64,000 bases of DNA, taken from positions 1 through 64,000 of the IMG/VR virus record IMGVR_UViG_3300025127_000009, one strand, 5' to 3'. Position 1 is the stretch's first letter. Every line of letters starts with the position of its first letter. Origin of the DNA: a virus. The notes beneath the pieces are model-generated. The model was not told the DNA's origin. It searched no databases and saw only the letters and a list, made by a program, of their open reading frames with translations. Both the position numbers and the translations under genes were made by a program. This document shows, one piece after another, positions 1,046 through 55,580 of this stretch.

Positions 1046-2809
1046 TCAACTAGCACCTGCCTCGCCAAGGAGACCGCGAACAATAACAAGACCATACATA
1101 TCAGGTCTAACCATCTTCTTAGCGTAACGGGTCATAACACCCTTACGTGGCACAAAATCCTCTGTGCCGAAGATGGTGGGAGTCACCTGAAGTGGTACGT
1201 ATGGAGCGTAGACAAAACCACTTTCTAAGAAAGAGTTGCCTCTACGACCAACGAGTAGCACGTTGCGTGGGAAGTATGGGTCAACCATGACGTCAAACTT
1301 CTTGCTAAGTGCACCAACCTTCACAGCACCAATGTCACCGCGATCTGCATCAGCAGTCACGCTAGCACGGAAGCCGCTTGTGAACTCAAGAATGTTAGCA
1401 ACTTCTGGGGAGCAGACAACAAAGTTTGCGCCACCGCGAAGTGTCTTTCTGTGGATCTGAGCACTAACATCGTTAATTGTCTCGATAAGTGTCTCGTACC
1501 ACTCGCTAACAGTACCGGTGAAATCAGGTGAAGCGCTAGTAGCGCCAAGTTCAGCACCAGTGCTATCAACGAAAAGACCAGGTGCACGGCTCCAGTAACG
1601 AGTACCAGCCTTAGCACCAATGATCAAATCACCAAGAATTTCCTGATCAATTTCTAGAGCAATCTGCTCAGAAAGAATGCCAGTCAATTCAACCTCTGCA
1701 TCAAGGTTGTGGTATGCGTTGAGATCTTGTCCCAACTCAGGGGTCCACTTAGCCTTGAGTTTCTTGGTCTGCGCGGTAACAGCAATGCTGTCAACCTTGA
1801 TATCAATCTCTGGGATCTTAGTTGAACTAAGTCTCTGAGGAGATCCATCAGCACCAGCACCTTCGAAGCCAACAGTAGATGCCTTAACAACACCAACGTG
1901 ATCGGTTGAAACAAGAGTATCCTTAATTGGGTACTCAATATCAATAGCAGTCTTGTGACTTGGCTGTCTGTTAGTAGCATTAGCAGCGGCTGCTGCACCT
2001 GCTGTATTAACAAACACAAGTCTCAAGTTACCAGAACTGTCAAGATCAGTCAAGCGACGAATCAACTGTACATTGGTACCGGCAGCATTTGTGCCGTCAA
2101 CTGTTATAACTCTTAGTGCTGCAAGCGCATCTTTGTTAAGATCCGCAGGAATTGCAGAAGAAGAAACCAAAATTTGAATAACTCTGTCACCAGTGTTAGC
2201 CAAAATATCGGGATCAAATCTAATTAATTTCTTTTGTGCTTCGGTAAGAGCCGAAACAAGAACACCTGTGTCAGCGCCACCGATGGCCTGACCAACACTA
2301 CCAGCAGCAATTTCGCTGGAGCCTGTTGGGTGCGAATAACCAGTGCCAAGATCATAGAAACCACCAGGGCCACCCTTGGTAAGATCTGCATCAAGGTCAA
2401 CACCACCGGTCAACTGGCGACCGACAACATTACCACCGTAGATGGATGCGTCAGCAACCATACCAGATCTAGTGTCACTGTGTGTGAAATCCAAGAAGAA
2501 AATCAATCCACTTGGAAGACTCATAGGCTGAACGCTTACGAGATCGTTTGCAATCAATCCACCGAAAACACGGCGAACGATTGGGAAAGCAACTGATGCG
2601 AAACCTTCGACATCACCTGCGGACATAGAGGAAGCCTCGCGAAGAAGTTCCTTTGCTTGGTTCTCAAGAAGAACCGACATACCCTGTCTAGCATGATCAT
2701 CCAACCCTTCCAGAAGGCCAGTCTTCTCCCACTTATTGAGGAGTGCTTCGCCTTCCTTCTGGACGTTACGATGAACAATACCTTCAGTTAATTTTTCTAA
2801 TACAGACAT
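1046..2809 (-). CDS. Major capsid protein, T4 gp23-like
   Basis: Motifs VQPMSLPSGLIFFLDF, AQTKKLKAKWTPELGQDLNAYHNLDAEVELTGILS, GFVYAPYVPL and PRKGVMTRY; TAGGAGG SD at 2820-2826. Confidence 0.97.
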   Translation of the reverse strand: MSVLEKLTEGIVHRNVQKEGEALLNKWEKTGLLEGLDDHARQGMSVLLENQAKELLREASSMSAGDVEGFASVAFPIVRRVFGGLIANDLVSVQPMSLPSGLIFFLDFTHSDTRSGMVADASIYGGNVVGRQLTGGVDLDADLTKGGPGGFYDLGTGYSHPTGSSEIAAGSVGQAIGGADTGVLVSALTEAQKKLIRFDPDILANTGDRVIQILVSSSAIPADLNKDALAALRVITVDGTNAAGTNVQLIRRLTDLDSSGNLRLVFVNTAGAAAAANATNRQPSHKTAIDIEYPIKDTLVSTDHVGVVKASTVGFEGAGADGSPQRLSSTKIPEIDIKVDSIAVTAQTKKLKAKWTPELGQDLNAYHNLDAEVELTGILSEQIALEIDQEILGDLIIGAKAGTRYWSRAPGLFVDSTGAELGATSASPDFTGTVSEWYETLIETINDVSAQIHRKTLRGGANFVVCSPEVANILEFTSGFRASVTADADRGDIGAVKVGALSKKFDVMVDPYFPRNVLLVGRRGNSFLESGFVYAPYVPLQVTPTIFGTEDFVPRKGVMTRYAKKMVRPDMYGLVIVRGLLGEAGAS

Positions 2810-2833: not shown

Positions 2834-3913
2834 TTATTGTTTTGTAATACCAGCAAGTCGCTGCATTCTTTCAGCAAAAATATCTGCTGAAGTTGTTCGC
2901 TTCTCTTCACGGGAACGAACTAACAGGCTTGGTCTTCTGTCTACGGCTTCGCTCAGTGATTCAGGACCAGTCTTCTTAGTATCAGACTGCACTGTGCTTT
3001 GAAGTGTTTCATAGATAACCTTCGCCTCATTTGCATCTTCGGTCTTAGCGATTGCTTCAACAATTTTCTTTTTCTGTCGCTCATTCAGGGAGCCACAACC
3101 TAAAGTCCGATTAATGTATAGTAACTTGGCGTTTGATGTATTGACGACATCAAACTTTTCTTTTAATTCTCCAACTGCGCTTTTATGAGCGTTTAAGTTT
3201 TCAGTTAAAGACAAGTTTTCTTCTTTAAGTAATTTGTTTTTCTTTGTAATCTTTTTGTTTGCCTCTTCTAGTTTCTTGAGGGCAGCACGCATTTCTTCCA
3301 TTTCTTCTTTTACTTTGTCATCTTGCATGCGAGCCAACTCAAGTTCTGCAGCATGCTCAAGTTCTTCATCAGAAATACCTAACCAGCCGCGCTTCTGAGG
3401 TTTAATATCGACCTTAAGAGATTCCAAAACATCTTGCACGATCATGTTTTCAATATCTTGTTCCCATTCGGCAACACCTTCAGTTGTAAGAGAATCAGCG
3501 TCAGCAGAAGATACGATGTCATCAGACATATCAGCAGCAACATCTTCGCTCGGGACCTTTTCTGCCTCCAAAGAATCTAAACCTGCATCGCCTTCTTCTT
3601 GTTCGATCTTTTCAATTCTTCTTTCTAATTCTGTAAGATCTAATGTAATTTTATCAGTTTCGCTAGGAGAAACTTCATCCATCAATTCTTGATCGGCTTT
3701 ATCAGAACCAGTTTGTTCTTCGTTTTCATTGGTACTTTCGTCTCCGCCGAGACCAAGGCCCATATCCAAATCCTCTTCTTGCTCCAGAAGAGTACTAACA
3801 GCCTCTTTAACTTGATCGGAATATTTTTCAATTACCAATTGTTCAGCATTTTTTAATGCAGCATCTCTTAATGCTTTTGCATCAACGATTGCTTGTTCTA
3901 GAAGTGAAGACAT
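2834..3913 (-). CDS. Prohead core scaffold protein, T4 gp22-like
   Basis: Acidic, coiled-coil, immediately upstream of the MCP; NAKLLYINR motif, C-terminal RMQRLAGI, many L-x-E sites. Confidence 0.85.
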   Translation of the reverse strand: MSSLLEQAIVDAKALRDAALKNAEQLVIEKYSDQVKEAVSTLLEQEEDLDMGLGLGGDESTNENEEQTGSDKADQELMDEVSPSETDKITLDLTELERRIEKIEQEEGDAGLDSLEAEKVPSEDVAADMSDDIVSSADADSLTTEGVAEWEQDIENMIVQDVLESLKVDIKPQKRGWLGISDEELEHAAELELARMQDDKVKEEMEEMRAALKKLEEANKKITKKNKLLKEENLSLTENLNAHKSAVGELKEKFDVVNTSNAKLLYINRTLGCGSLNERQKKKIVEAIAKTEDANEAKVIYETLQSTVQSDTKKTGPESLSEAVDRRPSLLVRSREEKRTTSADIFAERMQRLAGITKQ

Positions 3914-3942
3914 AAGTAACCCCTTATATATTTAAACTCACT

Positions 3943-3953
3943 AATAAATAGTT
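3943..3953 (-). promoter_or_regulatory. Putative late-promoter motif AACTATTTATT upstream of the scaffold-MCP genes
   Basis: Exact copy of the 11-mer, 30 nt upstream of the scaffold ATG. Confidence 0.6.
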
Positions 3954-3998: not shown

Positions 3999-6188
3999 TT
4001 ACTTATTAAACAAATATGCTAAATCTTTCCACTCTTTTACTGCTTTTTTCTGGCGCTTCGGTTTAGCAGCAGGAGGGGGCACATCTCCCCTAACTAGACC
4101 ATATTCTTTAAACGCTCTTAGTATAGCAAAGAGTGCTTCCTGATTCTTTGCAGTCTCAGGAAGACCTGCTTTCTTAAGTTGAGATGCTAATGTTTTGCTT
4201 ACTACTTTCCAAGTAAGTTTTTTGATTTTCTGTGAGTCTCTTGGCTCTCTATTAATTCTTGGTAGAATCTTTTCAATTGTTTGGTCAATAGCAGTTGACA
4301 ACTTTTTATTAAGTCTAGAACCTTTTATGACTCCTGCTCTTCTTAATTGTTTGGCTGCCGCTCTGAAAATACTAGCATCTACAGTTATAAGCGGATCTAC
4401 CACCTGTTTGCTTCTTCTGTTTGCTTTCTTGAAAGCGGTAGCAAGATCAGTGTCTGACATGTTTTTAACTTTATCAATTCTATCATCTTTAAACTTGCGA
4501 CTTAGATCATCTGTTGATGGTTCAGTATTGCCGCCGACAACGCCCTGATCCTGCGCAGCCTTTTGTATCTTTCTGTCTCGGTCCCTGCCCTTGTCTGATC
4601 TAGCAGTAGAGGGATGAAACTTTAAACCATCGTCATCTAATCTGACTAAAATAGGTCTAGTGTTAGCCTTGTCTTCTGGTTCTGGCTCTTCTTCCGCAGT
4701 CTCAGCAGGAGGAATTTCTGGCTCTGGCAAGGGTTGTAACTTTTGAAACAAATCATTTAGTTTTTGTGCTCTAGATGATTTTTCTCCCTTTAATCTTGCC
4801 AACTTGACTCCTAGCGCTGCAGCAGTTAAGCCAACTCCAATGGCACCTAAAGCACCAGAACCAACAAGCGCGGTGCCTGCACCAATCTTGCTTACGGTGT
4901 ATCCGCCTACAAATTTCGGACCAACCTTTGTAACGACTGCTTTTGCTGCTACTTGTGCAACACCCTTTGAAATGCCCAGAAGGTTTGTTAGGCCACCTTT
5001 AAAAGTTCCTGCACCTGACGCGCCCTGTGACATCATTTGTGCTAACTGTTGATCTTGGCCTGCAACGTATTGTATAAATTCGCTGGAAGGTGCTTTATTG
5101 TTGACAATTTTAAATATATTCTCTCCCGGATTCTCTTTACCATATTGATACATGTATTCCATCATCTTAGCACCGTCGCCCTTGGATGGCATCATTTGAG
5201 AGATTGCAGATGTAATATCAGATGTTTCAGCGTTTGAAATAGAAGAGATCTTATCTATTTGAGACGTAAAGTCTCCCATTGTTTTGGCCACGCCCGTACC
5301 GGTCGCGTTCCCAAGAGATTTTAAAAGACCAGCAGGAGAAGAAGAAACATCAACCCCCTGTCCCATCACTTGCTGAAAGTCGTCTATTTGTTTAATATTT
5401 TGAACGATCTCTGGCTTACCTAGCCCAGAACTCATTGCCATGAAATGAGCAGCGGTAAACGTACCGCCCAATAATCCTAGTACTGCTGGCAGTGTATTGG
5501 ACTTAAGACCTTTCATCGCTTTGGTTTGCTTAGCACCCTTATCTTGAAATCCAGCACGGGCGCGAGGATCGTCTTCTTCCTGTTCTGCAATAATATCTTG
5601 CACTAAATTAAATCTTGCTATGGGATCTTCGTTTAGCCAATCAACAAAAGTGTGATTTGTGTTTCCAAATTCTTTTTCATAAATTAAATAAAGATTTGAA
5701 AACTGATTCATCTGTTCTTCGTTGAAGTGTTTATATACATCTGCTAATTTTTTATCAGAATAAAATTCAACAAGATCCTTGAGGTCTTGAATCATCTCAT
5801 TTGCCATAGCGACTGGAAGATGTCCCTTCTCTTTCGGGTCTAACTTTGTTGCCTTAACAATGTCTTCATATGCCTGCTCCATTGCTGCTACGCCATTGAA
5901 GAAAACAAACTCGTCCTTCATGTTTGGGAAGCCTTTTAATTCTCCGTCTATTTCTTTCTTGAACGCCTGTAAAAACTTGTTTGACTCTTTATTGAACAAG
6001 TTTGCAATATATTCTTCAGCAGCCTGCTTCTCCATTCTCTTTCTTTTAGAAAACACAGAAATAAGATCGTCCATTGTTCCCAACTTAGCCAAGCCAGATT
6101 TAAAAGAGTTCCAAAGACCCTCATCTAGTTGTTGAAGGTTTTGATATTTATTCCAATTTTCGAAAATTAATTTTGTATCTTTACTCAT
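3999..6188 (-). CDS. Putative internal head or ejection protein (729 aa)
   Basis: Lies within the head module; N-terminal LIFENW...LDE|G; two Gly/Ala-rich hydrophobic segments; basic C-terminal third. Confidence 0.55.
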   Translation of the reverse strand: MSKDTKLIFENWNKYQNLQQLDEGLWNSFKSGLAKLGTMDDLISVFSKRKRMEKQAAEEYIANLFNKESNKFLQAFKKEIDGELKGFPNMKDEFVFFNGVAAMEQAYEDIVKATKLDPKEKGHLPVAMANEMIQDLKDLVEFYSDKKLADVYKHFNEEQMNQFSNLYLIYEKEFGNTNHTFVDWLNEDPIARFNLVQDIIAEQEEDDPRARAGFQDKGAKQTKAMKGLKSNTLPAVLGLLGGTFTAAHFMAMSSGLGKPEIVQNIKQIDDFQQVMGQGVDVSSSPAGLLKSLGNATGTGVAKTMGDFTSQIDKISSISNAETSDITSAISQMMPSKGDGAKMMEYMYQYGKENPGENIFKIVNNKAPSSEFIQYVAGQDQQLAQMMSQGASGAGTFKGGLTNLLGISKGVAQVAAKAVVTKVGPKFVGGYTVSKIGAGTALVGSGALGAIGVGLTAAALGVKLARLKGEKSSRAQKLNDLFQKLQPLPEPEIPPAETAEEEPEPEDKANTRPILVRLDDDGLKFHPSTARSDKGRDRDRKIQKAAQDQGVVGGNTEPSTDDLSRKFKDDRIDKVKNMSDTDLATAFKKANRRSKQVVDPLITVDASIFRAAAKQLRRAGVIKGSRLNKKLSTAIDQTIEKILPRINREPRDSQKIKKLTWKVVSKTLASQLKKAGLPETAKNQEALFAILRAFKEYGLVRGDVPPPAAKPKRQKKAVKEWKDLAYLFNK

Positions 6189-6195
6189 TTACTTT

Positions 6196-6366
6196 TTAAT
6201 CCCTTGTTGGATCGGTTCTTAATGAGGACAGGCCAGGGATAATTAGCCTTAATGGTGCAGATGCTAATTCCTTCTTTTTCCTTCTGTCTACAAAGATACC
6301 ATCCTTATTTAATTCTACTATCTCATCTATTACAAAGTTAGGTTTAATGCTGTATTTTCTATTCAC
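6196..6366 (-). CDS. Small hypothetical protein (about 56 aa, GTG start)
   Basis: Perfect TAAGGAGG SD overlapping the upstream stop (6373-6380) points to the GTG at 6366 rather than the track start at 6393. Confidence 0.65.
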   Translation of the reverse strand: MNRKYSIKPNFVIDEIVELNKDGIFVDRRKKKELASAPLRLIIPGLSSLRTDPTRD

Positions 6367-6377
6367 AACAAGCCTCC

Positions 6378-6833
6378 TTAGAATGTTGAACAAGCAGCAA
6401 AAATACTAGTGCCGGTGGCGCTACTACAAACAAAAGCAACACGATCAATACCAAGAATTTCATATGTTCTATATTCTCTCTCGTCAGGTGTAATGTCAGC
6501 AGCGTCTGCGTGCCCACTATCTGCTGGAGCGGGGATAGTTACAGCCGTGGGTGCCGCGTTAGCACCGACCTGACTAAAAGATTGTGGAAGTTCAAACCAT
6601 CGCTGAAAAGCGTGAGTATATCCGTATACCTTTACAGTTCCTGGCGCTGCACTGTGAGCGTCTTCTGTTAGAACATGCAGATATCTTTGGTTTTCGGTTG
6701 CGTACCCTGTTGTTGTGGCTGTTATACCTAACAAGTCAGCGGCAGAACTTGCTGTAACAGCGCCGCCTACAACGCCTGTTAAATTTTTTGGACCTCTTGT
6801 GCGGCCCCAACTAGTATTTTTAAAAGTTGTCAT
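6378..6833 (-). CDS. Hypothetical, probable virion protein (151 aa)
   Basis: AAGGAG SD; Ala/Thr-rich and beta-prone; motif variant ACTAGTTAT upstream at 6855-6863. Confidence 0.7.
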   Translation of the reverse strand: MTTFKNTSWGRTRGPKNLTGVVGGAVTASSAADLLGITATTTGYATENQRYLHVLTEDAHSAAPGTVKVYGYTHAFQRWFELPQSFSQVGANAAPTAVTIPAPADSGHADAADITPDEREYRTYEILGIDRVAFVCSSATGTSIFAACSTF

Positions 6834-6858
6834 CCTAAATCTCCTTAACTAAGTATAA

Positions 6859-7083
6859 CTAGTCTTTAAATTGGTCTAAATACTTTCTAGTTGCTTCTTG
6901 CGCCAATCTCTTTCTTCTTAACTTTTTAAGTTTTCTTTTTTCTGATTTAGAGATGAATCTTTGGCGCTTCTTGTACAATTCTATGATTCCACTCTTTTTA
7001 GTTTTCTTAATGAATCTTCTGACCATTCTCATTTGATCTTCATTTCTACGTGACTCAACTCCAAAATTAACTGCCTTGCTCAT
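6859..7083 (-). CDS. rpsU: Phage-encoded ribosomal protein bS21
   Basis: 74 aa, highly basic; V..RRNEDQMRMVRRFIKKTKKSGII...KRQRF...SEKRKLKK follows the bS21 pattern (RRF, G-I/V-L, SEKRK). Confidence 0.85.
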   Translation of the reverse strand: MSKAVNFGVESRRNEDQMRMVRRFIKKTKKSGIIELYKKRQRFISKSEKRKLKKLRRKRLAQEATRKYLDQFKD

Positions 7084-7093
7084 TTTTATTCCT

Positions 7094-7519
7094 TTACTTT
7101 AAAGCATTCCACTTACTGCCAAACAAACCAACTAAACTGTCTATATCCACTCCCTTATCTCTAGGATCTATATTTGCCAATGGAGAGGCGGAAGGAGCAT
7201 TGTTTGGATTACCGCCTTTACTTAAAGGTTCCGTACCTTCAAATACATTAACGCCTCCTAAGTTAGCGTAACCTGATTCAGCAATGGCTGAAAGCATTTT
7301 GTTTTTTGTTTCGTTAACTGCTTTGTGTGCTGCAGCATTGCGCCTTTCTACTTTTGGCTCTGGCGCTTTAGTTTCAACAATTCTATCTGCACCCATCCCT
7401 ACGACAATTTCTGCAACAAGTGTTGAAAGCACACCTTCCTCAAATATTGCCTCTCTAATACATTCCTTGACTACGGGTTTTAAAATAGTTTTTAACTTTT
7501 CTATTTCTTTTTTATTCAT
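7094..7519 (-). CDS. Head-module hypothetical protein (141 aa)
   Basis: GAGGA SD; N-terminal LKTILKPVVKECIREAIFEE; 4-nt overlap with the protease stop. Confidence 0.75.
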   Translation of the reverse strand: MNKKEIEKLKTILKPVVKECIREAIFEEGVLSTLVAEIVVGMGADRIVETKAPEPKVERRNAAAHKAVNETKNKMLSAIAESGYANLGGVNVFEGTEPLSKGGNPNNAPSASPLANIDPRDKGVDIDSLVGLFGSKWNALK

Positions 7520-8118
7520 TTGTTCCTCAAAATGTCTGTCATTAATCTATTAACTCTATCTAACTTAGACAGCGGCCTTGTCATATCTTTTGATTCGTTA
7601 ACCTGGCTCATGATTGCTCCAGGAGTAGAGGGGTCAGAAACCATATCAAAGCAAATTAATTGAAAATCATCTTCCACGATTGTGGCTCCGTCACGCTCTG
7701 TAACAGATCCCATTCCCCGAGAAGATATGCCACATGGAATGTTACATTCGACAAGATTTCTTAGAATCTTTCCCGCAGGGGTTGATAAAACTTCTATCTT
7801 GCCCATAACCTTTTTGCCTTCCATCCATATATCAGTTACCAAGTGTGAACAGTTCTGTAGATTAATAACAGAAGACTCTGGATGATCTAACTCACCTAGC
7901 GCTCTGCGCTCTTTTACTAACTGCTTGTATCTACCAACTTCTCTTTCCAGCAGTGCGTGTGGGTACATTCTACCATTGTGATTTTTTGTTTCTGACATTT
8001 GCATAACACCAGACAAAATAATAGTACCATTAGCAACACGGCGTTTCTCATCTTCTGTCAAAAGATCTTGGCAAACACCACCATCACAAAGTTCAAAATA
8101 TTCTCTTAAAAGTTTCAT
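7516..8118 (-). CDS. Prohead maturation protease, T4 gp21-like
   Basis: Motifs NHNGRMYP, ALGELDHP, GISSRGMGSV and FDMVSDPSTPGA. Confidence 0.96.
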   Translation of the reverse strand: MKLLREYFELCDGGVCQDLLTEDEKRRVANGTIILSGVMQMSETKNHNGRMYPHALLEREVGRYKQLVKERRALGELDHPESSVINLQNCSHLVTDIWMEGKKVMGKIEVLSTPAGKILRNLVECNIPCGISSRGMGSVTERDGATIVEDDFQLICFDMVSDPSTPGAIMSQVNESKDMTRPLSKLDRVNRLMTDILRNK

Positions 8119-8121
8119 ATC

Positions 8122-8208
8122 TTAGTTCCTATATGCGGGGGCCACCCGCTTCATACCAGAGCCCTTACAACAGTTAGCAACAGGTCTAATCATCCATCGC
8201 TTTCTCAT
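8122..8208 (-). CDS. Unannotated 28-aa peptide MRKRWMIRPVANCCKGSGMKRVAPAYRN
   Basis: Translated by hand; AGGAG SD at 8216-8220, ATG at 8208, TAA at 8122-8124; fills the gap before the protease gene. Confidence 0.55.
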   Translation of the reverse strand: MRKRWMIRPVANCCKGSGMKRVAPAYRN

Positions 8209-8509
8209 TTATATTCTCCTTGTGATGGCTAACTTTAATTCCTTCGTCTCCGACAATCATGTTACCAATATAGGAAACTGCTGAAGAGTAGCAGCCTAAT
8301 ATGAAAGCCGTGGACAAAGATCCATCAAATCTAAATAGTTCTGTTGTGCCACTAATTGCCCACAAAAATACCCCGACCCAGAATCCTGTACACATTGCAC
8401 AAGATAAAAGTTTACCCATCCAGCCTTGAGTAGGGCGAACCTTATCAAATATGCTTCCGTAAACTATAATTTGAGTCATACCGATGCAGGCAACTGTAAA
8501 GGTGAGCAT
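8186..8509 (-). CDS. Membrane protein with a CxxC motif (DUF1360-like)
   Basis: Hydrophobic helices and CAMCTGFWVG; GGAGA SD. Confidence 0.65.
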   Translation of the reverse strand: MLTFTVACIGMTQIIVYGSIFDKVRPTQGWMGKLLSCAMCTGFWVGVFLWAISGTTELFRFDGSLSTAFILGCYSSAVSYIGNMIVGDEGIKVSHHKENINEKAMDD

Positions 8510-9069
8510 TACTTCTCCATCATTTCTCTAAGGATGGAGTACATGTATTGAAATCCGTAAGGGCGAACCTGATGATCAAAAGAGCCTTTCTTTTCATCAT
8601 GCGGGACCTCTCCCAATTCTGTACTTTCTTCTTCTGAGGGATCGAGGAAAAAGTCTTGCAATTGTGTTTTGTAAACTTTTCTGGACTTGATTTCTGGTGT
8701 TTCCTCAAGAATAAAATCATAAAGTTCAGATAAGGCCATCTGAAAACTGGAGACTCCGTTAATGCTTGATTCATTTAATGTTCCTTCTAGAGAAGAAAAA
8801 ACAGAACCAGATCGTATGCTTGTTCTGTCAACTATTCCAACTCTTGCCATTCTCGAAAGAAGCCTATCTTGCGTATTGTATACTTCTTCTGAGGTTTCTT
8901 TTTTAGGAAAAATTGTAATTTTAGATTTTTCTCTAGAGACTACAATGTCTACCAAATCATGATCATAGATAAGTAAGTCACCATTAACAGACTGCCTCCC
9001 CTCGAAGGAAACAGTTTTTAATACTTCCTTATCTTTTTCTCCTCTCACGATTGTAATCTTAACTGACAT
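8509..9069 (-). CDS. Hypothetical protein (186 aa)
   Basis: GAGGGA SD; tightly coupled to both neighbours. Confidence 0.75.
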   Translation of the reverse strand: MSVKITIVRGEKDKEVLKTVSFEGRQSVNGDLLIYDHDLVDIVVSREKSKITIFPKKETSEEVYNTQDRLLSRMARVGIVDRTSIRSGSVFSSLEGTLNESSINGVSSFQMALSELYDFILEETPEIKSRKVYKTQLQDFFLDPSEEESTELGEVPHDEKKGSFDHQVRPYGFQYMYSILREMMEK

Positions 9070-9874
9070 CTTGTAATTCCCTCACAACCTCTTGTATCTT
9101 CAACACCTCCGAAACCATACTAATATCTATTTCTGCATTCTTGTAAGAATCAAGTTTTACAATTAATTCATCATATTTTTCTTTCATTTGATCGCTCTCA
9201 AACACACTATTATCTTTTTGATCCCTGAGAGAGACCTTGAGATCACTGATTTGTTCGTTTAGGTGATGTTTAAGTTCTAAAGAATTATCTGCGAAAGAAG
9301 CAATATACACTGTTAATAGTTCTTTTTGCTCTTTTGGGAGATCTCCGTATTTCTCATTAAACTTGTTAACAAAGGTTTTGTAGGTTAGATTATCAACGTG
9401 TTTAATATTATCTCCCTGTTCCTTCGAAGTTAAACTTTCAATTAGTTTTTGTTCTAACAAAACTTTTTCTTTTATAGATGTTTTGTTATTAAAGATATTA
9501 TAAATTGTTGCTAAATTTTTGTAATTTGGTACAAAGTTTGTGAAAACATCTTGAGATAACTTATAGTTTATCTCTTTTATTAATTTATTTTGTTCATGAA
9601 ATATTTGTTTCTTGTTCAAAGAATCGTATCTTCGTTTTGCTTCCTCAAGAACAGCGGTTGCCTCATCTTGTTCCAAACCTTGAGATTCTAGGATTTCACG
9701 ATACAAAGACAACTCTTCATTCAAAACACTTGGTTTGCAAAAGTTCTCTTTTATAATATCTTTAATTGTGTCTTGCTTGCCAGGGCTTTTCTTAATAATG
9801 GCTTTAACATACTCTCTGGAAAGTGTCTCAAACAAAAACGCTGTATTTCTTTTCTTATTGTGCTTCAATCTCAT
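9059..9874 (-). CDS. Hypothetical helical protein downstream of portal (271 aa)
   Basis: AGGGAG SD; starts MRLKHNKKRNTAFLFE; 4-nt overlap with the portal stop. Confidence 0.75.
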   Translation of the reverse strand: MRLKHNKKRNTAFLFETLSREYVKAIIKKSPGKQDTIKDIIKENFCKPSVLNEELSLYREILESQGLEQDEATAVLEEAKRRYDSLNKKQIFHEQNKLIKEINYKLSQDVFTNFVPNYKNLATIYNIFNNKTSIKEKVLLEQKLIESLTSKEQGDNIKHVDNLTYKTFVNKFNEKYGDLPKEQKELLTVYIASFADNSLELKHHLNEQISDLKVSLRDQKDNSVFESDQMKEKYDELIVKLDSYKNAEIDISMVSEVLKIQEVVRELQDVS

Positions 9875-11829
9875 TTTTTGGACTCCCTACTGTTTAGTTC
9901 TTCAATAAGACTTGTCACCTCATTGTTTAAAGCAAAAATTCTGCTTTCTTCATTAAAGTAATTAGTATCCAAATCTCTAGAAAGTTGTTCCTTTGCGACA
10001 ACTCCACGCCCTAAAGCCTTAAAGTTTGTAAATGGTTTTCCTTTTGTTAAAGCCTTCAAGGGACCCTCGCCAGGAATGTTTCTAACGCTCTGAGTTCTTC
10101 CACCAGTTTCTCTTTTGTCTTTTGCACCGGTCATTGCTTTTGTTATATGAATTTTGCCTTTCGAAGGATCGTCCTCTCTTGATCCTGGCGCTGCAAGTAG
10201 AGCAGAATCTGCCCCGCCCGTCTCAGGCGTATCTGCTGCTGGTTCCGGCGGTGTGGCTGGTGTGTCACCAATATTAAGACCACCCATGTCTGTTGGGCCA
10301 GCATCTGCATCAGCACCAAGGGTTGCCATCTCATCGGCAGTGTTAACACCAGAGGTGACCTCCTCTTGTGCCTGTTCTGCCACTGCTTCAAGTTTTGAAT
10401 CAAATTGACGGTCATAATACATTTGTCTTTGATTTTTCAAGAACTCCTCTTCTGTCATGTTAAACAGATGAGTTGCAATCCACTGACGACTAAAATATCC
10501 TTCTGTTGCTGCTGAAGCGACATCAAATTTTGTTTTCCAGTGTTCTAGTTCTTGAATCTCCGCTATCTTTGATGGGTTACTTAACTTTAATTTAAAATTA
10601 ATTAAATCTTCACCTCGGAAGCCCATTGTAAAAAGGTGCACTATTCCAATTTTTTCTAGTTCTGTGATAATCGATCTTTGAAGTCTTTGAATAGTTCTAG
10701 CAAATCTAATATCTTTTTGTGCTAATGTTGTCTGATCTTCACCACCTGCGTCGTCGCCTCTAGAGAGATATGATTGAGGAATTTTAAGTGCTGAGAACAA
10801 TTTGTCTCTCATGTACTTGACATCATCTATGTCTCCCGTGTATGTTCCACCAGGCAATGATTCAACTCTAGAGTTTTGGCCAGCGCGAGTGGGTATAAAG
10901 TAATCTTCATCTACAGACATCGGATTGTATCTTAAGTCCACTCGTCCTGTGTTTGGATCAACCACTTGATTTCTTTTCATCTGGGTCATGACTCTCTGCA
11001 TGTATTGTTCTATGTCTTGTGGAGGAATGCTTCCTACGTCAATGTAGAACACTCTTCTTTCTGGAGAGCGAACAATGCGATATGCCATCATCGCATCTTC
11101 GATAAGAGTCAATTGTCTCCAAATTCTTCTGGCAGGCTCCAAAACAGATGTACCATATGGCGCATACTTGTCGTTACCAAGGATTCTAAAGTGACCAACT
11201 TGCCAGTTTTCAAAAGTTAAACCAGCAGAATTCCATTGAAACTGACAATAATTTGGATTTGTCTTATCTTCCCCTTCTAGTCTCTCTAACTCCGTGCCAG
11301 GTAGGCCAATTACGTTTTTTATTCCGATTGCCTCATCAATATCCAAGTACAAAAAGAAATCACCATACTTGCACATTGTCCTACACCACCCAAATAGATT
11401 AAACTCCAGATTCATTATATTAAAGTAAAGATTGTGAAGGATCGCTTTAATTTCATCGTTGTTGCAATCTACAACCATTAATGGCTGCAGGCCACTGTGA
11501 GTTGTCATTTCGTCTGCATAGATATCTAGAGCCGACGCTATTTCGGGGGTATATTCCATTTGATCAAAGTCAACGTACCTCTCTAATCTGTTTTGAGAGT
11601 CTTGCGCTGCGCCATACAATCCAGAAAATGGATTGTAATCTGTTCTTTTAAATTGTTTGCCACTAGCAGACTGAAAACGATTTGCATACTTATCTAATTG
11701 TCTTCTTCTTAAACGGCGGGCCGTTTGCGTTCTGTAGTTTACGATTGGACCAGACAACAATCTTGTTAGTTTTTTAAATAATGTATTTTGAGGATTCTTT
11801 GGATTTATCTTATTAATCTTAAATGGCAT
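9871..11829 (-). CDS. Portal protein, T4 gp20-like, with a low-complexity C-terminal extension
   Basis: Motifs EDAMMAYRIVRSPERRVFYIDVG, EDYFIP, LPGG, DIDDVKYMRDKLFSALKIP and DIRFARTIQRLQ. Confidence 0.96.
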   Translation of the reverse strand: MPFKINKINPKNPQNTLFKKLTRLLSGPIVNYRTQTARRLRRRQLDKYANRFQSASGKQFKRTDYNPFSGLYGAAQDSQNRLERYVDFDQMEYTPEIASALDIYADEMTTHSGLQPLMVVDCNNDEIKAILHNLYFNIMNLEFNLFGWCRTMCKYGDFFLYLDIDEAIGIKNVIGLPGTELERLEGEDKTNPNYCQFQWNSAGLTFENWQVGHFRILGNDKYAPYGTSVLEPARRIWRQLTLIEDAMMAYRIVRSPERRVFYIDVGSIPPQDIEQYMQRVMTQMKRNQVVDPNTGRVDLRYNPMSVDEDYFIPTRAGQNSRVESLPGGTYTGDIDDVKYMRDKLFSALKIPQSYLSRGDDAGGEDQTTLAQKDIRFARTIQRLQRSIITELEKIGIVHLFTMGFRGEDLINFKLKLSNPSKIAEIQELEHWKTKFDVASAATEGYFSRQWIATHLFNMTEEEFLKNQRQMYYDRQFDSKLEAVAEQAQEEVTSGVNTADEMATLGADADAGPTDMGGLNIGDTPATPPEPAADTPETGGADSALLAAPGSREDDPSKGKIHITKAMTGAKDKRETGGRTQSVRNIPGEGPLKALTKGKPFTNFKALGRGVVAKEQLSRDLDTNYFNEESRIFALNNEVTSLIEELNSRESKK

Positions 11830-11835
11830 TTTTTA

Positions 11836-13422
11836 TTATCCTTTAAACAACCAGGCATGTTGTTCTAGTATTTCTTTTTCTTTTCTAGTTTTTTCAAAAG
11901 TGTTTTTAGAATCATAACCTTGCATACCTTTGATTGCGGTGTTGATAGTGGTTTTTGCAGATATCATTGTATCAAGAAAAGCCCTATTATATTCAATATT
12001 TCTTTTATTTTCCACCAAAGCCGTTTCCCTAATCCAACACCCAATTGCACAAGCCATAATCAAATCATCATTGTAGGACCTCATTGCTTCGGGGCGTCCA
12101 TGATTCCAAATGAAAGTCTTCATTTCATTAAAAAGACGAGATGAATTTACTTTAATTAGTTTATTTCTAACAAATTCTTCCAACTTTGCTATAACTAGTG
12201 GTCTTGTCTTTTGACTGGTTGTAAAGCCGCTTACTGCATTTGTCGCTGTCTCTGCTAAAACTGGATCAATATATTCGTGTGTAGACTTTATTGAATAAAA
12301 TATGTTTGGATACTGCTTTTCTTTTAATTTATCTAAAACTGTAAATCCAACACTGTTATTCTCAACCACTACCATACAATTCCCATATTCTCTACCAGCA
12401 TTGTAAATCATATCAGAAAATATATCTGGTGTAATTTTTCCTTGATACTCTGCTACTATTTCCATCGAAACAGTGTCAAATATATGAAACACAGAATAAT
12501 CTTTACCGTCGCCGCGAGCAACATCTGCACTCAACAGATAAGCAACTGCGCTGTCATATTCTTTCCAAATCCAGTAATTTCTATCAAAACCTGTTTTATA
12601 CTTTGGCTCACAAATAGATTCTTCTATTCTTCCTATGTCTTCTGGGTGAAAGACAGTCTCGCCAGACATGTTGAAACTGCATTCTAACTCCTGTGCAATT
12701 TGTCTTCTGGACATGTTTTTAGTTTCTTTTTCAAACCATTCTCTGTCTCTCTCTGGATGCACATCCCAAGGAAGACGAACTGAGTTAAAATCATTGCCAC
12801 CCTGATCTGCTTCGACGTAAGTCTTATGAAACCAATTTCCTACGCCGTTAGGTGTAGATAGGGCGATACAACGTCCACCCGTAGATAGTGTTGGATAAAG
12901 ACCGGTCCACAATTCATCTAATCCTTCAACGTGTGCTGCCTCATCAATAACCAAAAGAGAAAGTGCTTCTGAACGACCTGCATCGCCAGAAGTAGAAGAA
13001 GCCTTTATCTGTGAGCCGTTTGTTAATTCAAAAGAAGTTCTGTTGTCAATTGCAACTTCTGCGATGCGGATCCAATCTGGACAATTTTTTAAAATGGATT
13101 TTACTTTTTTGACCAGATTCGCAGCAGTGTGAAACTTAGTTGCTAACACAAGAACATTCTTTTCTCTGTGAAATAAAAGAAGCCAGACAACATAGGCCGC
13201 AGTAATTGTTGACAACCCCAACTGTCTGGCTTTAAGCACTATATTAAAACGATGATCTTCAAAATCTTTTAAAATATCTTTTTGATAATCATAAGTTTTA
13301 AAGGGAACTAGTCCTTTGAGAGGATGTGTAATCTTGGCGTAATTGTTGATGAAATAAGATGGATCCTTACCAGACTTAAGGATTTCTTTCATCACCTCCT
13401 TTTTAGATAATACTGGTTTCAT
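11836..13422 (-). CDS. Terminase large subunit, T4 gp17-like
   Basis: Walker A KARQLGLST, Walker B LLVIDEAA, STPNG, nuclease ADVARGDGKDYS and DDLIMACAIG. Confidence 0.96.
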   Translation of the reverse strand: MKPVLSKKEVMKEILKSGKDPSYFINNYAKITHPLKGLVPFKTYDYQKDILKDFEDHRFNIVLKARQLGLSTITAAYVVWLLLFHREKNVLVLATKFHTAANLVKKVKSILKNCPDWIRIAEVAIDNRTSFELTNGSQIKASSTSGDAGRSEALSLLVIDEAAHVEGLDELWTGLYPTLSTGGRCIALSTPNGVGNWFHKTYVEADQGGNDFNSVRLPWDVHPERDREWFEKETKNMSRRQIAQELECSFNMSGETVFHPEDIGRIEESICEPKYKTGFDRNYWIWKEYDSAVAYLLSADVARGDGKDYSVFHIFDTVSMEIVAEYQGKITPDIFSDMIYNAGREYGNCMVVVENNSVGFTVLDKLKEKQYPNIFYSIKSTHEYIDPVLAETATNAVSGFTTSQKTRPLVIAKLEEFVRNKLIKVNSSRLFNEMKTFIWNHGRPEAMRSYNDDLIMACAIGCWIRETALVENKRNIEYNRAFLDTMISAKTTINTAIKGMQGYDSKNTFEKTRKEKEILEQHAWLFKG

Positions 13423-15405: not shown

Positions 15406-18400
15406 CTAAATATTGACGTGTGCAAATCCTTTTTTTCTATCAATAACAATCTGCGTATCAACTGCGTCCTTAAGAGTATCTAGGTGCGAGATAAGCATAA
15501 CAGTCCTAAAATATGACTTAACCATATCAATAATCCTCACAAAACCCTCCATATTGTCCTCATCTAGCGCTGTGCCTGGTTCATCAAGTATAAATATGTC
15601 AGGTTTTGGCAAACTAGAAACAGTCAAAAGCGCTAATCGAATGGCCATCGAGGCGATTGTTTTTTCTGCTCCGGAGCCCATTTCTAGGGGTCTAGGTTCG
15701 TATTTTGCATGCTTTATAAAAATATCTAATTTCTTGTCTTCATTCTTTATAAAGATTTCAAAATCAACAACACCTGTTAAAATCTTAGCAATCTCTTCAT
15801 TAATAAGAGGAAGCCTATTTTTTATTATGTTATAGGATATTCCATTTGGGTGGTAACACCTCATCAATAAATCATATGCTGCAAATTCAACCCTAAGAAT
15901 CTCTAGATCTTCTTTGTTTTTATTTATGTTTTCAATATTCTGTTCTGCTGAGCCGATCTCTCTAAATAAATTATTGCTCTCTTCGTTGCAAGAATCACAC
16001 TCTTTTTTAGATGCGCGAATCTTAGACTTTATATTTTTTCTTTCTGCGATAAGATCTTCCAGGTTTTCAATTGCTTCTTTGTTTTCTTCATACTCTAACA
16101 ATTTAGCCTCAAGATTAGACAACAATGTCTTCTCCTTAAACAACTGAGCCTCGTTCTTGTCAATAGACAACTGGGCATTTGTTATACCTGAAGACAGGTT
16201 GTTTTTCTTATCTACTACTTGATTGTACTTATCTAAGTAAACCTCGACCTTTCCAGGCTCCAATTCTCTTAGTTCTTCTCCTAGTTTATTAATGTTGTTA
16301 GACGTCTCCTGTTGCTCTCTCTCTACGACCTGTATTAGTTCAATAGATTCATGAGCATCTTTTATAAACTTACAATTAGGAAACTTATCTCCACAAGGCA
16401 CCTCAGACAATAAGTCTGTTTTTCTATATAAACGTACCCTCTTTTCAGAATGCGACTTTAAATCTTGAATACATTTTGAAATTGAATCTCTCTTATCTTC
16501 AATAAGTTTAATCTTTTCTTCATAAGTCTCTACATCAAACTGGCCAAGAAAATCATTAATTTTAACAAACTTTTCCTTGTCTTGTTCCAGTTCTTCTTCA
16601 AGAGATTTGTTAGCAGTTTCTAGTTTGTCAATGTTTGCATTTCTAGTTTCTATCTCCATTTTTATCTTTATAGGATCAATAACTTCTGTCGGTGCTGAAT
16701 CAATCTTGTTTTGCACTTCATTTAGACTTTCATTAAAAGACTGCAGTTCAGACTCCAACTCTTTACACCTTCTCTGGTTTTGGATAAGTTTTTCATTACA
16801 TTCTTCTAGTGTAGATATGGCTTCTCTCTCAAGTTCTGCGTAATCAACTCCCTCAAGCCGACGCAGTGCGCCTCGTATATCTGTGGACTCTTCCTTTGCC
16901 ATCTTAAACTTTTTATCAAAAACTTCAAGATCTAAGAATTTTGCTAATATCTCTTTGCGCTTTGTGGAGCCCTCATTGATAAAAGTTAGCGAATCAAGTT
17001 GACTAGCCATCGATGTCATGAGAAAGTCTTCTAAATTGCCAAAATACTTTCTTATATTTTTGTCTGTATCTTGTCTGGACGTTCCATTCAATACCTCGAC
17101 ATTCCCTATCATATCTGACGAAGAAAACTCAACATCCGTTTTTGCTTCGAGCGTTTCCTGGCCTTTTAATTTTTTAATATATTTTTCTGATATTCTTTCG
17201 ACTTCAAGTGTTTTATCCCCAACCTTCATGACTGCTTTCGCTGAACCTACATCAAAATTTTGATTGATCATGTTCAAGTTCTTTCTTACAGATTTTGAAG
17301 TAGAATTATAAACAGCATACAACAAACTATCAATAATTGAAGATTTACCAGAAAAATTCTTTCCAAATATTCCTACAATTCCTTCAAGTTTCTCGAAGTC
17401 TATTTTGTTTTTTTCTCCATAATTAAACAAACCACTCCACTCTAAAGACTTAAGGCTCCAATTAATGTTACGATACACATCTTCTTTTTCTTCTATTAAT
17501 TTATTGTATCTTGAATTAAGTTCAAAAATTTTATTCATCACATCTTCTGAAACTTCGTAATCTTCCAAGTAGTCTTTTATTAAGTTTCTTTGAACACTGA
17601 TGCTTCTCAAATCTTCTTTCTTAACTATAGTTATGTCATCGCCTGTGCCAGCGCCAGCGGCTCGATTCAAGTATGTTATCGTATCCGGCTTAAATTTGTG
17701 CTTAGCAACATCTACACTTTTTCTCATCTTATCTAGAGAAATGTTGTTTTCAGCCACTAATCTTATTCTTGCACCCTCTGAGACTTCAACTTCTGGAAGT
17801 CCGCCATCTTTGTTCAGAACAATTGTTACAAACGGCTTAGGATTGTTAAAAGCAATGTGTTTGCAAGTAAACTTATCTTTACTTTCAATATCCCACAGCA
17901 AATAACCCTTGTCTAGCGACTCTCCAAAATTTTGCTGTACAGTTGATCCAGCATATCTAATTTTTCCGTGCTTATCTAATATTTGAGTTTTGTGAATGTC
18001 TCCCAAGAAAGCATAATCAAAATTGTCAAATATAGCAATATCGTGATCACCACCAAGAGTCCAATTTAAATCTGTCTTAGATCTGTCAATCGCTCCGTGA
18101 TACAAAGCAATATTGATTGCTTTTGAATCAGAAGGTTGCACCCAATTATCTTCATCAAAAACTGACAAAACATTTAGGCAAAATTTATCATCAATTTTTG
18201 TTTCGCCAGCGTCTTTTAGCAAATGCAAATGTTGCAAATCGAGAGCATCAACAATCGGAGTTAGCGCATCCTGTCTGCTGCTATTCTTTAGATTGCCATC
18301 GTGATTGCCCAAAATGATATAAGTGGGTGCAATAGTTGCCAAGTTCGTAAAAAACTCTGCAGCCATTTGTACAAACTCTGGAGATATTTGTGTCTTTGTA

Positions 18401-18540
18401 TGCGCAATATCTCCACAGTGAATTATGTAATCTACGCCCTCTTTTTTAAGAGAAGCGTATAGTTGTTTAAAAACCTCTTTGTATTCAAAATGATATTTTA
18501 AGTTACGAATGTGAGTGTCTGCTATATGTGCAAACTTCAT
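15406..18540 (-). CDS. Fused Mre11/SbcD nuclease and Rad50/SbcC ATPase (T4 gp47-gp46-like)
   Basis: N-terminal ADTH, GDIAH, GNHD and GDIH phosphoesterase motifs; Walker A GKNFSGKSS; long coiled coil; signature GSGAEK; Walker B/D-loop ILDEPGTALD; H-loop ISH. Confidence 0.93.
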   Translation of the reverse strand: MKFAHIADTHIRNLKYHFEYKEVFKQLYASLKKEGVDYIIHCGDIAHTKTQISPEFVQMAAEFFTNLATIAPTYIILGNHDGNLKNSSRQDALTPIVDALDLQHLHLLKDAGETKIDDKFCLNVLSVFDEDNWVQPSDSKAINIALYHGAIDRSKTDLNWTLGGDHDIAIFDNFDYAFLGDIHKTQILDKHGKIRYAGSTVQQNFGESLDKGYLLWDIESKDKFTCKHIAFNNPKPFVTIVLNKDGGLPEVEVSEGARIRLVAENNISLDKMRKSVDVAKHKFKPDTITYLNRAAGAGTGDDITIVKKEDLRSISVQRNLIKDYLEDYEVSEDVMNKIFELNSRYNKLIEEKEDVYRNINWSLKSLEWSGLFNYGEKNKIDFEKLEGIVGIFGKNFSGKSSIIDSLLYAVYNSTSKSVRKNLNMINQNFDVGSAKAVMKVGDKTLEVERISEKYIKKLKGQETLEAKTDVEFSSSDMIGNVEVLNGTSRQDTDKNIRKYFGNLEDFLMTSMASQLDSLTFINEGSTKRKEILAKFLDLEVFDKKFKMAKEESTDIRGALRRLEGVDYAELEREAISTLEECNEKLIQNQRRCKELESELQSFNESLNEVQNKIDSAPTEVIDPIKIKMEIETRNANIDKLETANKSLEEELEQDKEKFVKINDFLGQFDVETYEEKIKLIEDKRDSISKCIQDLKSHSEKRVRLYRKTDLLSEVPCGDKFPNCKFIKDAHESIELIQVVEREQQETSNNINKLGEELRELEPGKVEVYLDKYNQVVDKKNNLSSGITNAQLSIDKNEAQLFKEKTLLSNLEAKLLEYEENKEAIENLEDLIAERKNIKSKIRASKKECDSCNEESNNLFREIGSAEQNIENINKNKEDLEILRVEFAAYDLLMRCYHPNGISYNIIKNRLPLINEEIAKILTGVVDFEIFIKNEDKKLDIFIKHAKYEPRPLEMGSGAEKTIASMAIRLALLTVSSLPKPDIFILDEPGTALDEDNMEGFVRIIDMVKSYFRTVMLISHLDTLKDAVDTQIVIDRKKGFAHVNI

Positions 18541-19709: not shown

Positions 19710-20197
19710 CTATCTGACTTATCCATCATGCCAGGCTTTGGGTTTCCATGCTTTGTATATTCTACTATAAAGTTTGGTTCATTTGCAAGAACAAAATTAA
19801 AACTTGTTTCTTTTGCCTTGACACCTTTTTGAGTTTTAACTCCAACTGTTTTGCGAGCAGTGGTGGCCATTATCAATTCCGGTAACAAGCCAAAAACATC
19901 TGCACATATCCAAGAAACGATACCATTGAACCTTTGTAGGGTCGCCATTGTTCTGGCGGACGATCCTCCAGAATTAAAAAAAGTAAAAGGCTCTTCTATA
20001 TAAACGTGACTCGGTGTAATTTGCATTACATTTTTAATATTTTGCAATTGCTCTTGAATTAATTTCGCCTTATCAATAACTGTTGGAAATTTGTTTTTAT
20101 TTCTTGTATCCCACAACTCATTATATATCATCTTGCCATCTTTGTCAAGAATTGTTGCGCCTGTTATGCTTGTTGAAACGTCTAGACCTAATATCAT
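19661..20197 (-). CDS. RuvC-like Holliday junction resolvase
   Basis: ILGLDVST, YIEE and DKSDSWIIA carry the RuvC acidic catalytic residues. Confidence 0.85.
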   Translation of the reverse strand: MILGLDVSTSITGATILDKDGKMIYNELWDTRNKNKFPTVIDKAKLIQEQLQNIKNVMQITPSHVYIEEPFTFFNSGGSSARTMATLQRFNGIVSWICADVFGLLPELIMATTARKTVGVKTQKGVKAKETSFNFVLANEPNFIVEYTKHGNPKPGMMDKSDSWIIAKAGYILCNQKN

Positions 20198-55553: not shown

Positions 55554-55569
55554 ACCAACAAACCTCAGT

Positions 55570-55580
55570 AATAAATAGTT
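55570..55580 (-). promoter_or_regulatory. Putative late-promoter motif AACTATTTATT upstream of the gp6-like gene
   Basis: Exact copy of the 11-mer, overlapping the gp25 stop, 17 nt from the gp6 ATG. Confidence 0.5.

Follow-up and report, generated by a model that had tools for sequence, protein, structure and literature searches.

bS21 is the commonest ribosomal protein encoded by viruses (Mizuno et al. 2019, PMC6375957). In the ribosome, it lies by the anti-Shine-Dalgarno (anti-SD) sequence and the mRNA exit channel (PMC12262407). It is required for natural mRNA binding, and a phage copy has been found to enter the E. coli 70S ribosome, leading to the proposal that it replaces the host bS21 (PMC6375957). 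This copy, the only one for which entry has been shown, is that of the Pelagibacter phage HTVC008M, a marine myophage of a Kyanoviridae-type lineage, and is 54 % identical to the protein of its host. The prohead protease is the commonest neighbour of bS21 genes, being found in 310 of 900 phages and usually 2-4 genes away (Chen et al. 2022, PMC9723584). In clades a-e of the same study, which comprise phages with genomes of 293-331 kb and freshwater Bacteroidetes hosts, bS21 lies a few genes from TerL, portal, prohead protease, and MCP, on the reverse strand with respect to its neighbours. Its C-terminus is conserved within clades, and both late expression and ribosome substitution have been inferred. 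Co-expression of bS21 with head genes has been documented in lake phages (PMC9723584). In Bacteroidia, the cellular bS21 displays a signature that helps to sequester the anti-SD, i.e., a Tyr54 stacking on A1534 and a C-terminal domain that is far less basic than that of other phyla (Jha et al., PMC7797042).

The locus described here belongs to the IMG/VR record IMGVR_UViG_3300025127_000009, a phage genome of 192,597 bp estimated as 100 % complete by CheckV, with a GC content of 37.8 %, five tRNAs, and a tmRNA. The window, i.e., the whole stretch of DNA that was presented for analysis, covers positions 1 to 64,000 of this record (64,000 nucleotides), and its coordinates are also those of the genome. 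A simple ORF caller assigns 193 of the 205 ORFs to the minus strand. The two ends of the genome (1-1018 and 191580-192597, ~1 kb each) are 82-98 % identical and share an identical stretch with the late motif discussed below as well as paralogous ~141-aa genes (489-914 and 192062-192493). They could form an imperfect terminal duplication or reflect a circular genome closed across strain variants. The features of the head module and its surroundings are collected in Table 1.

Table 1. Features of the bS21 locus and of the neighbouring head module (positions in the window).
Feature	Position	Strand	Details
Major capsid protein (MCP), Gp23-type	1046..2809	-	PF07068, 244 bits; SD TAGGAGG
p359, probable scaffold	2834..3913	-	behind perfect late motif AACTATTTATTAG
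p151, variable gene directly after bS21	6378..6833	-	SD TAAGGAG
Late-promoter-like motif ACTAGTTA	6856..6863	-	overlaps bS21 stop codon, 30 nt before the start of the next gene
bS21 (rpsU-like) gene	6859..7083	-	74 aa, pI 11.3; PF01165, PDB bS21 matches, AF2/Foldseek, dN/dS
bS21 SD AAGGA	7090..7094	-	6 nt before ATG, overlaps TAA stop of p141
p141, conserved head-module protein	7094..7519	-	protease-bS21 interval
T4-type prohead core protease (gp21-like)	7516..8118	-	PF03420, 99.5 bits; phrog_207
p107, p186, p271, three conserved prohead-module ORFs	8186..9874	-	syntenic in related loci
T4-type portal (gp20-like)	9871..11829	-	PF07230, 272.6 bits
Late-promoter-like motif ACTAATTA	9959..9966	-	92 nt before p271
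Large terminase (TerL)	11836..13422	-	PF03237
Mre11/Rad50-type (SbcCD-like) fusion	15406..18540

The preliminary description of this DNA, made from its letters, had read a bS21 gene at 6859-7083. This assignment is borne out by profile matches and by the constraint on the sequence (see below), and the ORF encodes a real phage bS21 homologue. A Pfam profile search, a negative outcome of which had been named as a refutation, returns PF01165 (Ribosomal_S21) at 32.6 bits against a curated cut-off of 27, with residues 9-59 aligned on profile positions 2-52 of 55. It is the single match to this family across the whole genome. Searched against the PDB, a profile of the close family retrieves bS21 chains in solved ribosomes, with best E-values of about 1e-7 to 1e-6. 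The calculated pI of 11.27 and the length place the protein within the small (about 55-75 aa), strongly basic bS21 class. The AF2 model (pLDDT 87.9) is composed of helices 17-31, 33-41, and 46-72. The 12 best Foldseek matches of this model are all bS21 chains, with target-normalised TM values up to 0.83 and rmsd of 1.3-3.9 Å, yet with E-values of 0.24 or worse, as is usual for tiny helical proteins.

The phage protein shares its size, its basic C-terminal domain, and apparently its fold with E. coli-type cellular bS21s, the PDB entries with the highest profile scores (31-35 bits). Identity, however, is about 23-29 %, and the KPS/T motif reads SKS (S45-K46-S47), the proline being replaced while S47 is invariant in the family. 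The phage clade also has a C-terminal tail of its own, ...TRKY..F.D, in which Y68 and F72 are conserved across the close clade. The N-terminus, read from the translation, is MSKAVNFGVESRRNE, and 17 residues are invariant among 16 homologues. By its PF01165 score and its SKS motif, the protein is very diverged from cellular bS21, much more so than that of HTVC008M, which scores 65.7 bits with the same profile.

These 16 close homologues, 47-81 % identical, all originate from marine metagenomes. More widely, relatives of this bS21 are found in 50 IMG/VR loci at 37-100 % identity, with conserved position and length, although in three of these loci a tblastn re-check failed to recover the weak bS21 match. 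In all 50, the order TerL-portal-p271-p186-p107-protease-p141-bS21 is kept on one strand as far as the contigs reach. p141 precedes bS21 in 49 of the 50 (33-100 % identity), the exception being locus L044, a contig starting 19 nt before the bS21 match. The identity of bS21 declines in parallel with that of the neighbouring genes across related loci, and an AAGGA/AAGGG SD is conserved before the gene in close relatives. Pairwise dN/dS values have a median of 0.07 (28 usable pairs), which points to strong purifying selection, in agreement with what has been found for ribosomal-protein genes of viruses (PMC6375957). The best explanation of this pattern would be that bS21 is a vertically inherited core head-morphogenesis gene in a large marine clade of T4-like phages.

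A PF01165 score only just over threshold might have suggested a decaying or neutral passenger gene devoid of a role. This reading is refuted by the dN/dS, the conserved position and length in the 50 loci, the intact reading frame, and the conserved SD, and its probability is close to nil.

Two scans of 185,579 GTDB species genomes bear on the origin of the gene. The first, using family-specific patterns, found no relative of this bS21 in these genomes. The second returned three matches, all of them on mis-binned contigs carrying the same phage head module. These contigs, PBOB01000007.1, PBHR01000019.1, and PIWD01000006.1, represent the head module of this phage lineage, with protease, p141, and bS21 (plus MCP in the first), and are binning contaminants filed under an Acidiferrobacteraceae MAG, a "Methanobacteriota archaeon" MAG, and a Gammaproteobacteria MAG, respectively. 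They could mislead readers into taking the phage bS21 for a cellular one, and the S21 filed under "Betaproteobacteria bacterium TMED156" is probably a phage mis-binning likewise. Because all three GTDB matches are mis-binned phage modules, this type of bS21 looks phage-only. A tblastn search of bS21 against a phage collection yielded no match, although the Microcystis phage Mel-JY01 carries a homologue. This result is uninformative, the homologue having probably been hidden by the low-complexity filter or by its short length.

Phage Mel-JY01 (PP395634), a cultured phage of 190 kb and thus of similar genome size, displays the same architecture: TerL, portal, three ORFs, prohead protease, one ORF, bS21, and then MCP, all on one strand. 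Its annotated RpsU occupies the same slot and is 36 % identical to the present bS21 over 50 residues. In contrast, its TerL (42 % identity) and portal (39-42 %) are distant, the C-terminal tail of its bS21 is different, and its host is a freshwater cyanobacterium. The portal of the Flavobacterium phage immuto is as close as that of Mel-JY01 (42.5 % identity), and no bS21 is found anywhere in the 160 kb of immuto. Directly after its protease, in the slot of p141, immuto possesses an unrelated acidic 75-aa ORF (L052:25241-25468) with the N-terminus ..HKWQAKFLKE.... Compared with the phages of clades a-e, the locus shares the proximity of bS21 to TerL, portal, protease, and MCP, and differs by a bS21 encoded on the strand of its neighbours and by a genome of 192.6 kb.

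The bS21 gene lies two genes from the protease and six genes from both the MCP and the portal. The preliminary description had located it between protease and scaffold, which is roughly right. The full order is protease, p141, bS21, p151, a small ORF, p729, the scaffold-like p359, and MCP, and p359 matches the end of an acidic pre-MCP protein in phage immuto. In an otherwise rigid head module, the part that follows bS21 (3999-6833, minus strand) is variable. p151 is just 32-50 % identical in relatives in which the flanking genes reach 60-80 %, and p729 (729 aa) is detectable in just 3 of the 50 related loci. The small ORF (6196-6362, minus strand, ~55 aa) opens with GTG, and the very strong SD TAAGGAGG, at about 6371-6378, precedes this start by 6 nt; in the program-made ORF list it begins further upstream, at a TTG at 6393 inside the end of p151.

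A position in the protease-scaffold interval, where T4 encodes prohead core proteins, together with the very basic pI, invites the idea of a moonlighting virion protein, packaged as a DNA-condensing internal protein or injected as a cargo acting on ribosomes from the start of infection. Packaging has indeed been raised as a possibility by Chen et al. (PMC9723584). The conservation of the bS21 core under strong purifying selection is, however, what would be expected of an rRNA-binding protein, and a virion role seems improbable.

The time at which the gene is expressed may be approached through a recurrent sequence motif. The motif [AT]CTA[TAG]TTA occurs in 57 copies on the coding strand versus 22 on the other, and 27 of the 57 fall within the 100 nt preceding a start, for an expectation of 10 %. 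A longer form, AACTATTTAWTAG, precedes some structural genes. This sequence, with the above core, is a candidate late promoter, found for example at 3941-3953, 55568-55580, and 964-976. Among the 19 loci checked, the copy located -92/-93 before p271 recurs in 6, and a copy at or just past the end of bS21 recurs in 10. The late unit p271-p186-p107-protease-p141-bS21 therefore probably starts at the motif near 9966, with bS21 as its last gene, and the protein would consequently be made together with the capsid proteins. Module membership and the candidate promoter motif thus both suggest a late timing. A terminator scan revealed nothing bounding the bS21 transcription unit and no clear minus-strand terminator between 20148 and bS21. 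Read-through into bS21 from a sigma70 promoter at 20148 (see below) may occur, the genome being one-stranded. A GC-rich hairpin (GCGGG-TGGCC-CCCGC, 8135-8149, minus strand), with no T-run, is located in the 67-nt gap ahead of the gene for the prohead protease; within the late unit, it might act in the processing or the stability of the RNA.

Two options had been put forward for a bS21 gene surrounded by SD motifs. Either the host belongs to an SD-using lineage, or it belongs to Bacteroidota, in which the anti-SD is sequestered by bS21, bS18, and bS6; in that case, the phage bS21 would replace the host copy, free the anti-SD, and favour SD-led late mRNAs. A comparison of the C-terminus with the anti-SD contacts of Flavobacterium bS21 had been named as a check. 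The profile alignment with the F. johnsoniae protein (7JIL chain z, profile score 21 bits) covers the homologous core, residues 13-53 of the phage protein being placed without gaps onto residues 8-48 of the chain. With this offset of 5 (S47 = S42), the position of Tyr54 corresponds to R59. The equivalent residue is R or K in 13 of the 16 homologues; of the other three, the two most distant carry E and the third, a truncated sequence, lacks the position. The C-terminal domain has a pI of 10.73 (10.3-11.5 in the family), with 12 K/R versus 4 D/E. The phage bS21 is thus devoid of both Bacteroidia features, the aromatic residue 54 and the less basic C-terminal domain. Taken by itself, this absence would fit a host outside Bacteroidota and would equally fit the freeing of the anti-SD, as such a protein would not sequester it. 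The freeing option might also draw on the gain of SD reading by F. johnsoniae ribosomes without bS21 (PMC9976891) and on the fact that, of the two cultured phages with the closest portals, one infects Flavobacterium. On the other hand, a syntenic bS21 is found in a cyanophage (Mel-JY01), and the published bS21s of Bacteroidetes phages keep an aromatic residue at position 54 (PMC9723584), where the present family has R/K. The signature being ambiguous, the decision is carried by the promoters and by the SDs of early genes.

SD usage was scored as the longest match to TAAGGAGGTGA at positions -20 to -4, with a single simple ORF caller for all genomes, and the background as the identical measure at internal in-frame ATG codons (random sites were also used for the present phage). 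Over the whole genome, SDs of at least 4 nt are found at 61-65 % of starts, the upper value being that of minus-strand starts, versus a background of 16-19 %, and those of at least 5 nt at 32-34 % versus 5 %. SD 4-mers show a sharp peak at -15 to -9. With the same threshold of at least 4 nt, the values in 50 kb are 58 % (background 11 %) for T4 of E. coli, 53 % (20 %) for HTVC008M, likewise an SD-rich marine phage, and 40 % (20 %) for P-SSM2 of Prochlorococcus. Mel-JY01 is lower than the present phage, with 47 % (9 %) in 39 kb and 38 % (8 %) in the whole genome. Phage immuto reaches only 4 % (20 %) in 50 kb and 7 % (26 %) in the whole genome, i.e., a frequency below background. The 61 % of the present phage exceeds those of the other marine phages tested and is as high as that of T4.

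The preliminary description was therefore right in reporting SD motifs on most genes (61-65 % of starts against a background of about 17 %), and the sites that it named for the MCP (TAGGAGG), the small ORF (TAAGGAGG), and the SbcCD-like gene (GGAGG) are present. Its view of the head module as specially SD-rich does not hold, because SD richness is genome-wide. A comparison of early and late genes, also named as a check, reveals no difference: 62 of 99 starts have an SD in the 100.6-160.6 kb region, which holds the tRNAs, a chaperonin, DnaE, and many small genes, versus 42 of 59 in the structural regions (Fisher p = 0.30).

The promoters of this early region are of a canonical type. Perfect TTGACA-N16/17-TATAAT sequences occur five times on the coding strand and never on the other, for a mean of 0.2 in first-order Markov simulations. 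With at most one mismatch and spacers of N16-18, they number 18 versus 4, for a simulation mean of 4.6. Four of the five perfect sigma70 promoters are located within the 100.6-160.6 kb region, and the fifth is found at 20148, ahead of a DnaG-like primase gene. The sigma-A/RNA polymerase of Bacteroidota uses a different promoter consensus. The Bacteroidota pattern TTTG-N18-22-TAnnTTTG shows no enrichment in the present genome; its rarity in immuto, however, leaves this comparison without power.

Since early genes behind sigma70 promoters carry SDs as often as late genes, the host ribosomes must read SDs, and an SD reading that takes place before the late protein exists cannot depend on it. Most likely, the host is an ordinary bacterium outside Bacteroidota that uses SDs and has a canonical sigma70 RNA polymerase, and the many SD sites of the phage are ordinary, host-matched signals. 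With such a host, no unmasking of the anti-SD would be needed. The first option, an SD-using lineage, is thereby supported by the T4-level SD frequency, the contrast with immuto, and the early-gene SDs. The same data, together with the sigma70 promoters, leave the second without support: the early region is as SD-rich as the late modules, and immuto, whose SDs are so rare, lacks bS21 altogether. A Bacteroidota host whose anti-SD is freed by the phage protein is accordingly very improbable, and the SD and promoter evidence sets this phage apart from clades a-e in terms of host.

Further hints on the host are weak. The contigs of relatives are mostly binned with Gammaproteobacteria-class MAGs. 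All five tRNAs (Lys-UUU, Ile-UAU, Thr-UGU, Leu-UAA, and Arg-UCU; 112799-121550) read A-ending codons, which hints at a host with a higher GC content than that of the phage. The cellular-type IMPDH/GMP-reductase-like gene at 142416-143453 gave no host clue, either from its homologues of 62-68 % identity or from its PDB matches.

The reading favoured here, with a probability of roughly 60 %, is that of a late-made bS21 homologue that binds the host 30S in an ordinary, SD-using host outside Bacteroidota, with no unmasking of the anti-SD. On the 30S platform, the protein would bind at the bS21 site, close to the anti-SD and to the channel through which mRNA exits, where it would supplement or displace the loosely bound, exchangeable bS21 of the host. 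Ribosomes would then stay initiation-competent during the bulk synthesis of phage structural proteins. We infer both the incorporation into ribosomes and the benefit to phage translation. In E. coli in vitro, ribosomes with the pelagiphage bS21 translated poorly, at about 5 % (Mizuno et al., PMC6375957), so a "boost" is not the sole possible outcome. The strong divergence of the phage protein from cellular bS21 likewise counts against the favoured reading.

The phage protein might also do more than keep ribosomes competent. Its clade-specific N-terminus and conserved tail could give rise to specialised ribosomes in an SD-using host, shifting leader preference to phage mRNAs, whether SD-rich or bearing another leader feature, which would then outcompete those of the host. 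Such an effect has a precedent in the bS21 paralogues of Francisella, which alter translation in a leader-dependent manner (PMC12262407, PMC9578407). The conservation of Y68 and F72 across the close clade, the absence of this bS21 type from any cellular genome among the 185,579 GTDB species, and an SD frequency above that of other marine phages are in line with this idea. Nothing in the sequence, however, indicates selectivity; the SD usage recorded here is that of the phage alone, and the divergence may merely reflect a long residence in phages. Specialised ribosomes are thus an unlikely, though not negligible, alternative. One form of it, in which a phage-only bS21 with the basic tail ...TRKY..F.D would make the 30S prefer SD-rich phage leaders in a marine host that itself uses SDs less, appears slightly more doubtful.

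The favoured reading, a late-made bS21 binding the 30S of an SD-using host, opens no new kind of biology. The presence of bS21 beside the prohead protease has already been published (Chen 2022; Mizuno 2019), and the SD-rich context is ordinary. Freeing of the anti-SD by bS21 should not be assumed merely from SD-rich genes in a phage that carries this protein. The locus contributes a complete, clean example (193 kb) from a populous clade of marine phages, with bS21 as a fixed part of the head operon. As its genome clearly uses SDs and sigma70-type promoters, this clade lends itself better to tests in SD-using laboratory hosts than do the Bacteroidetes phages examined so far.
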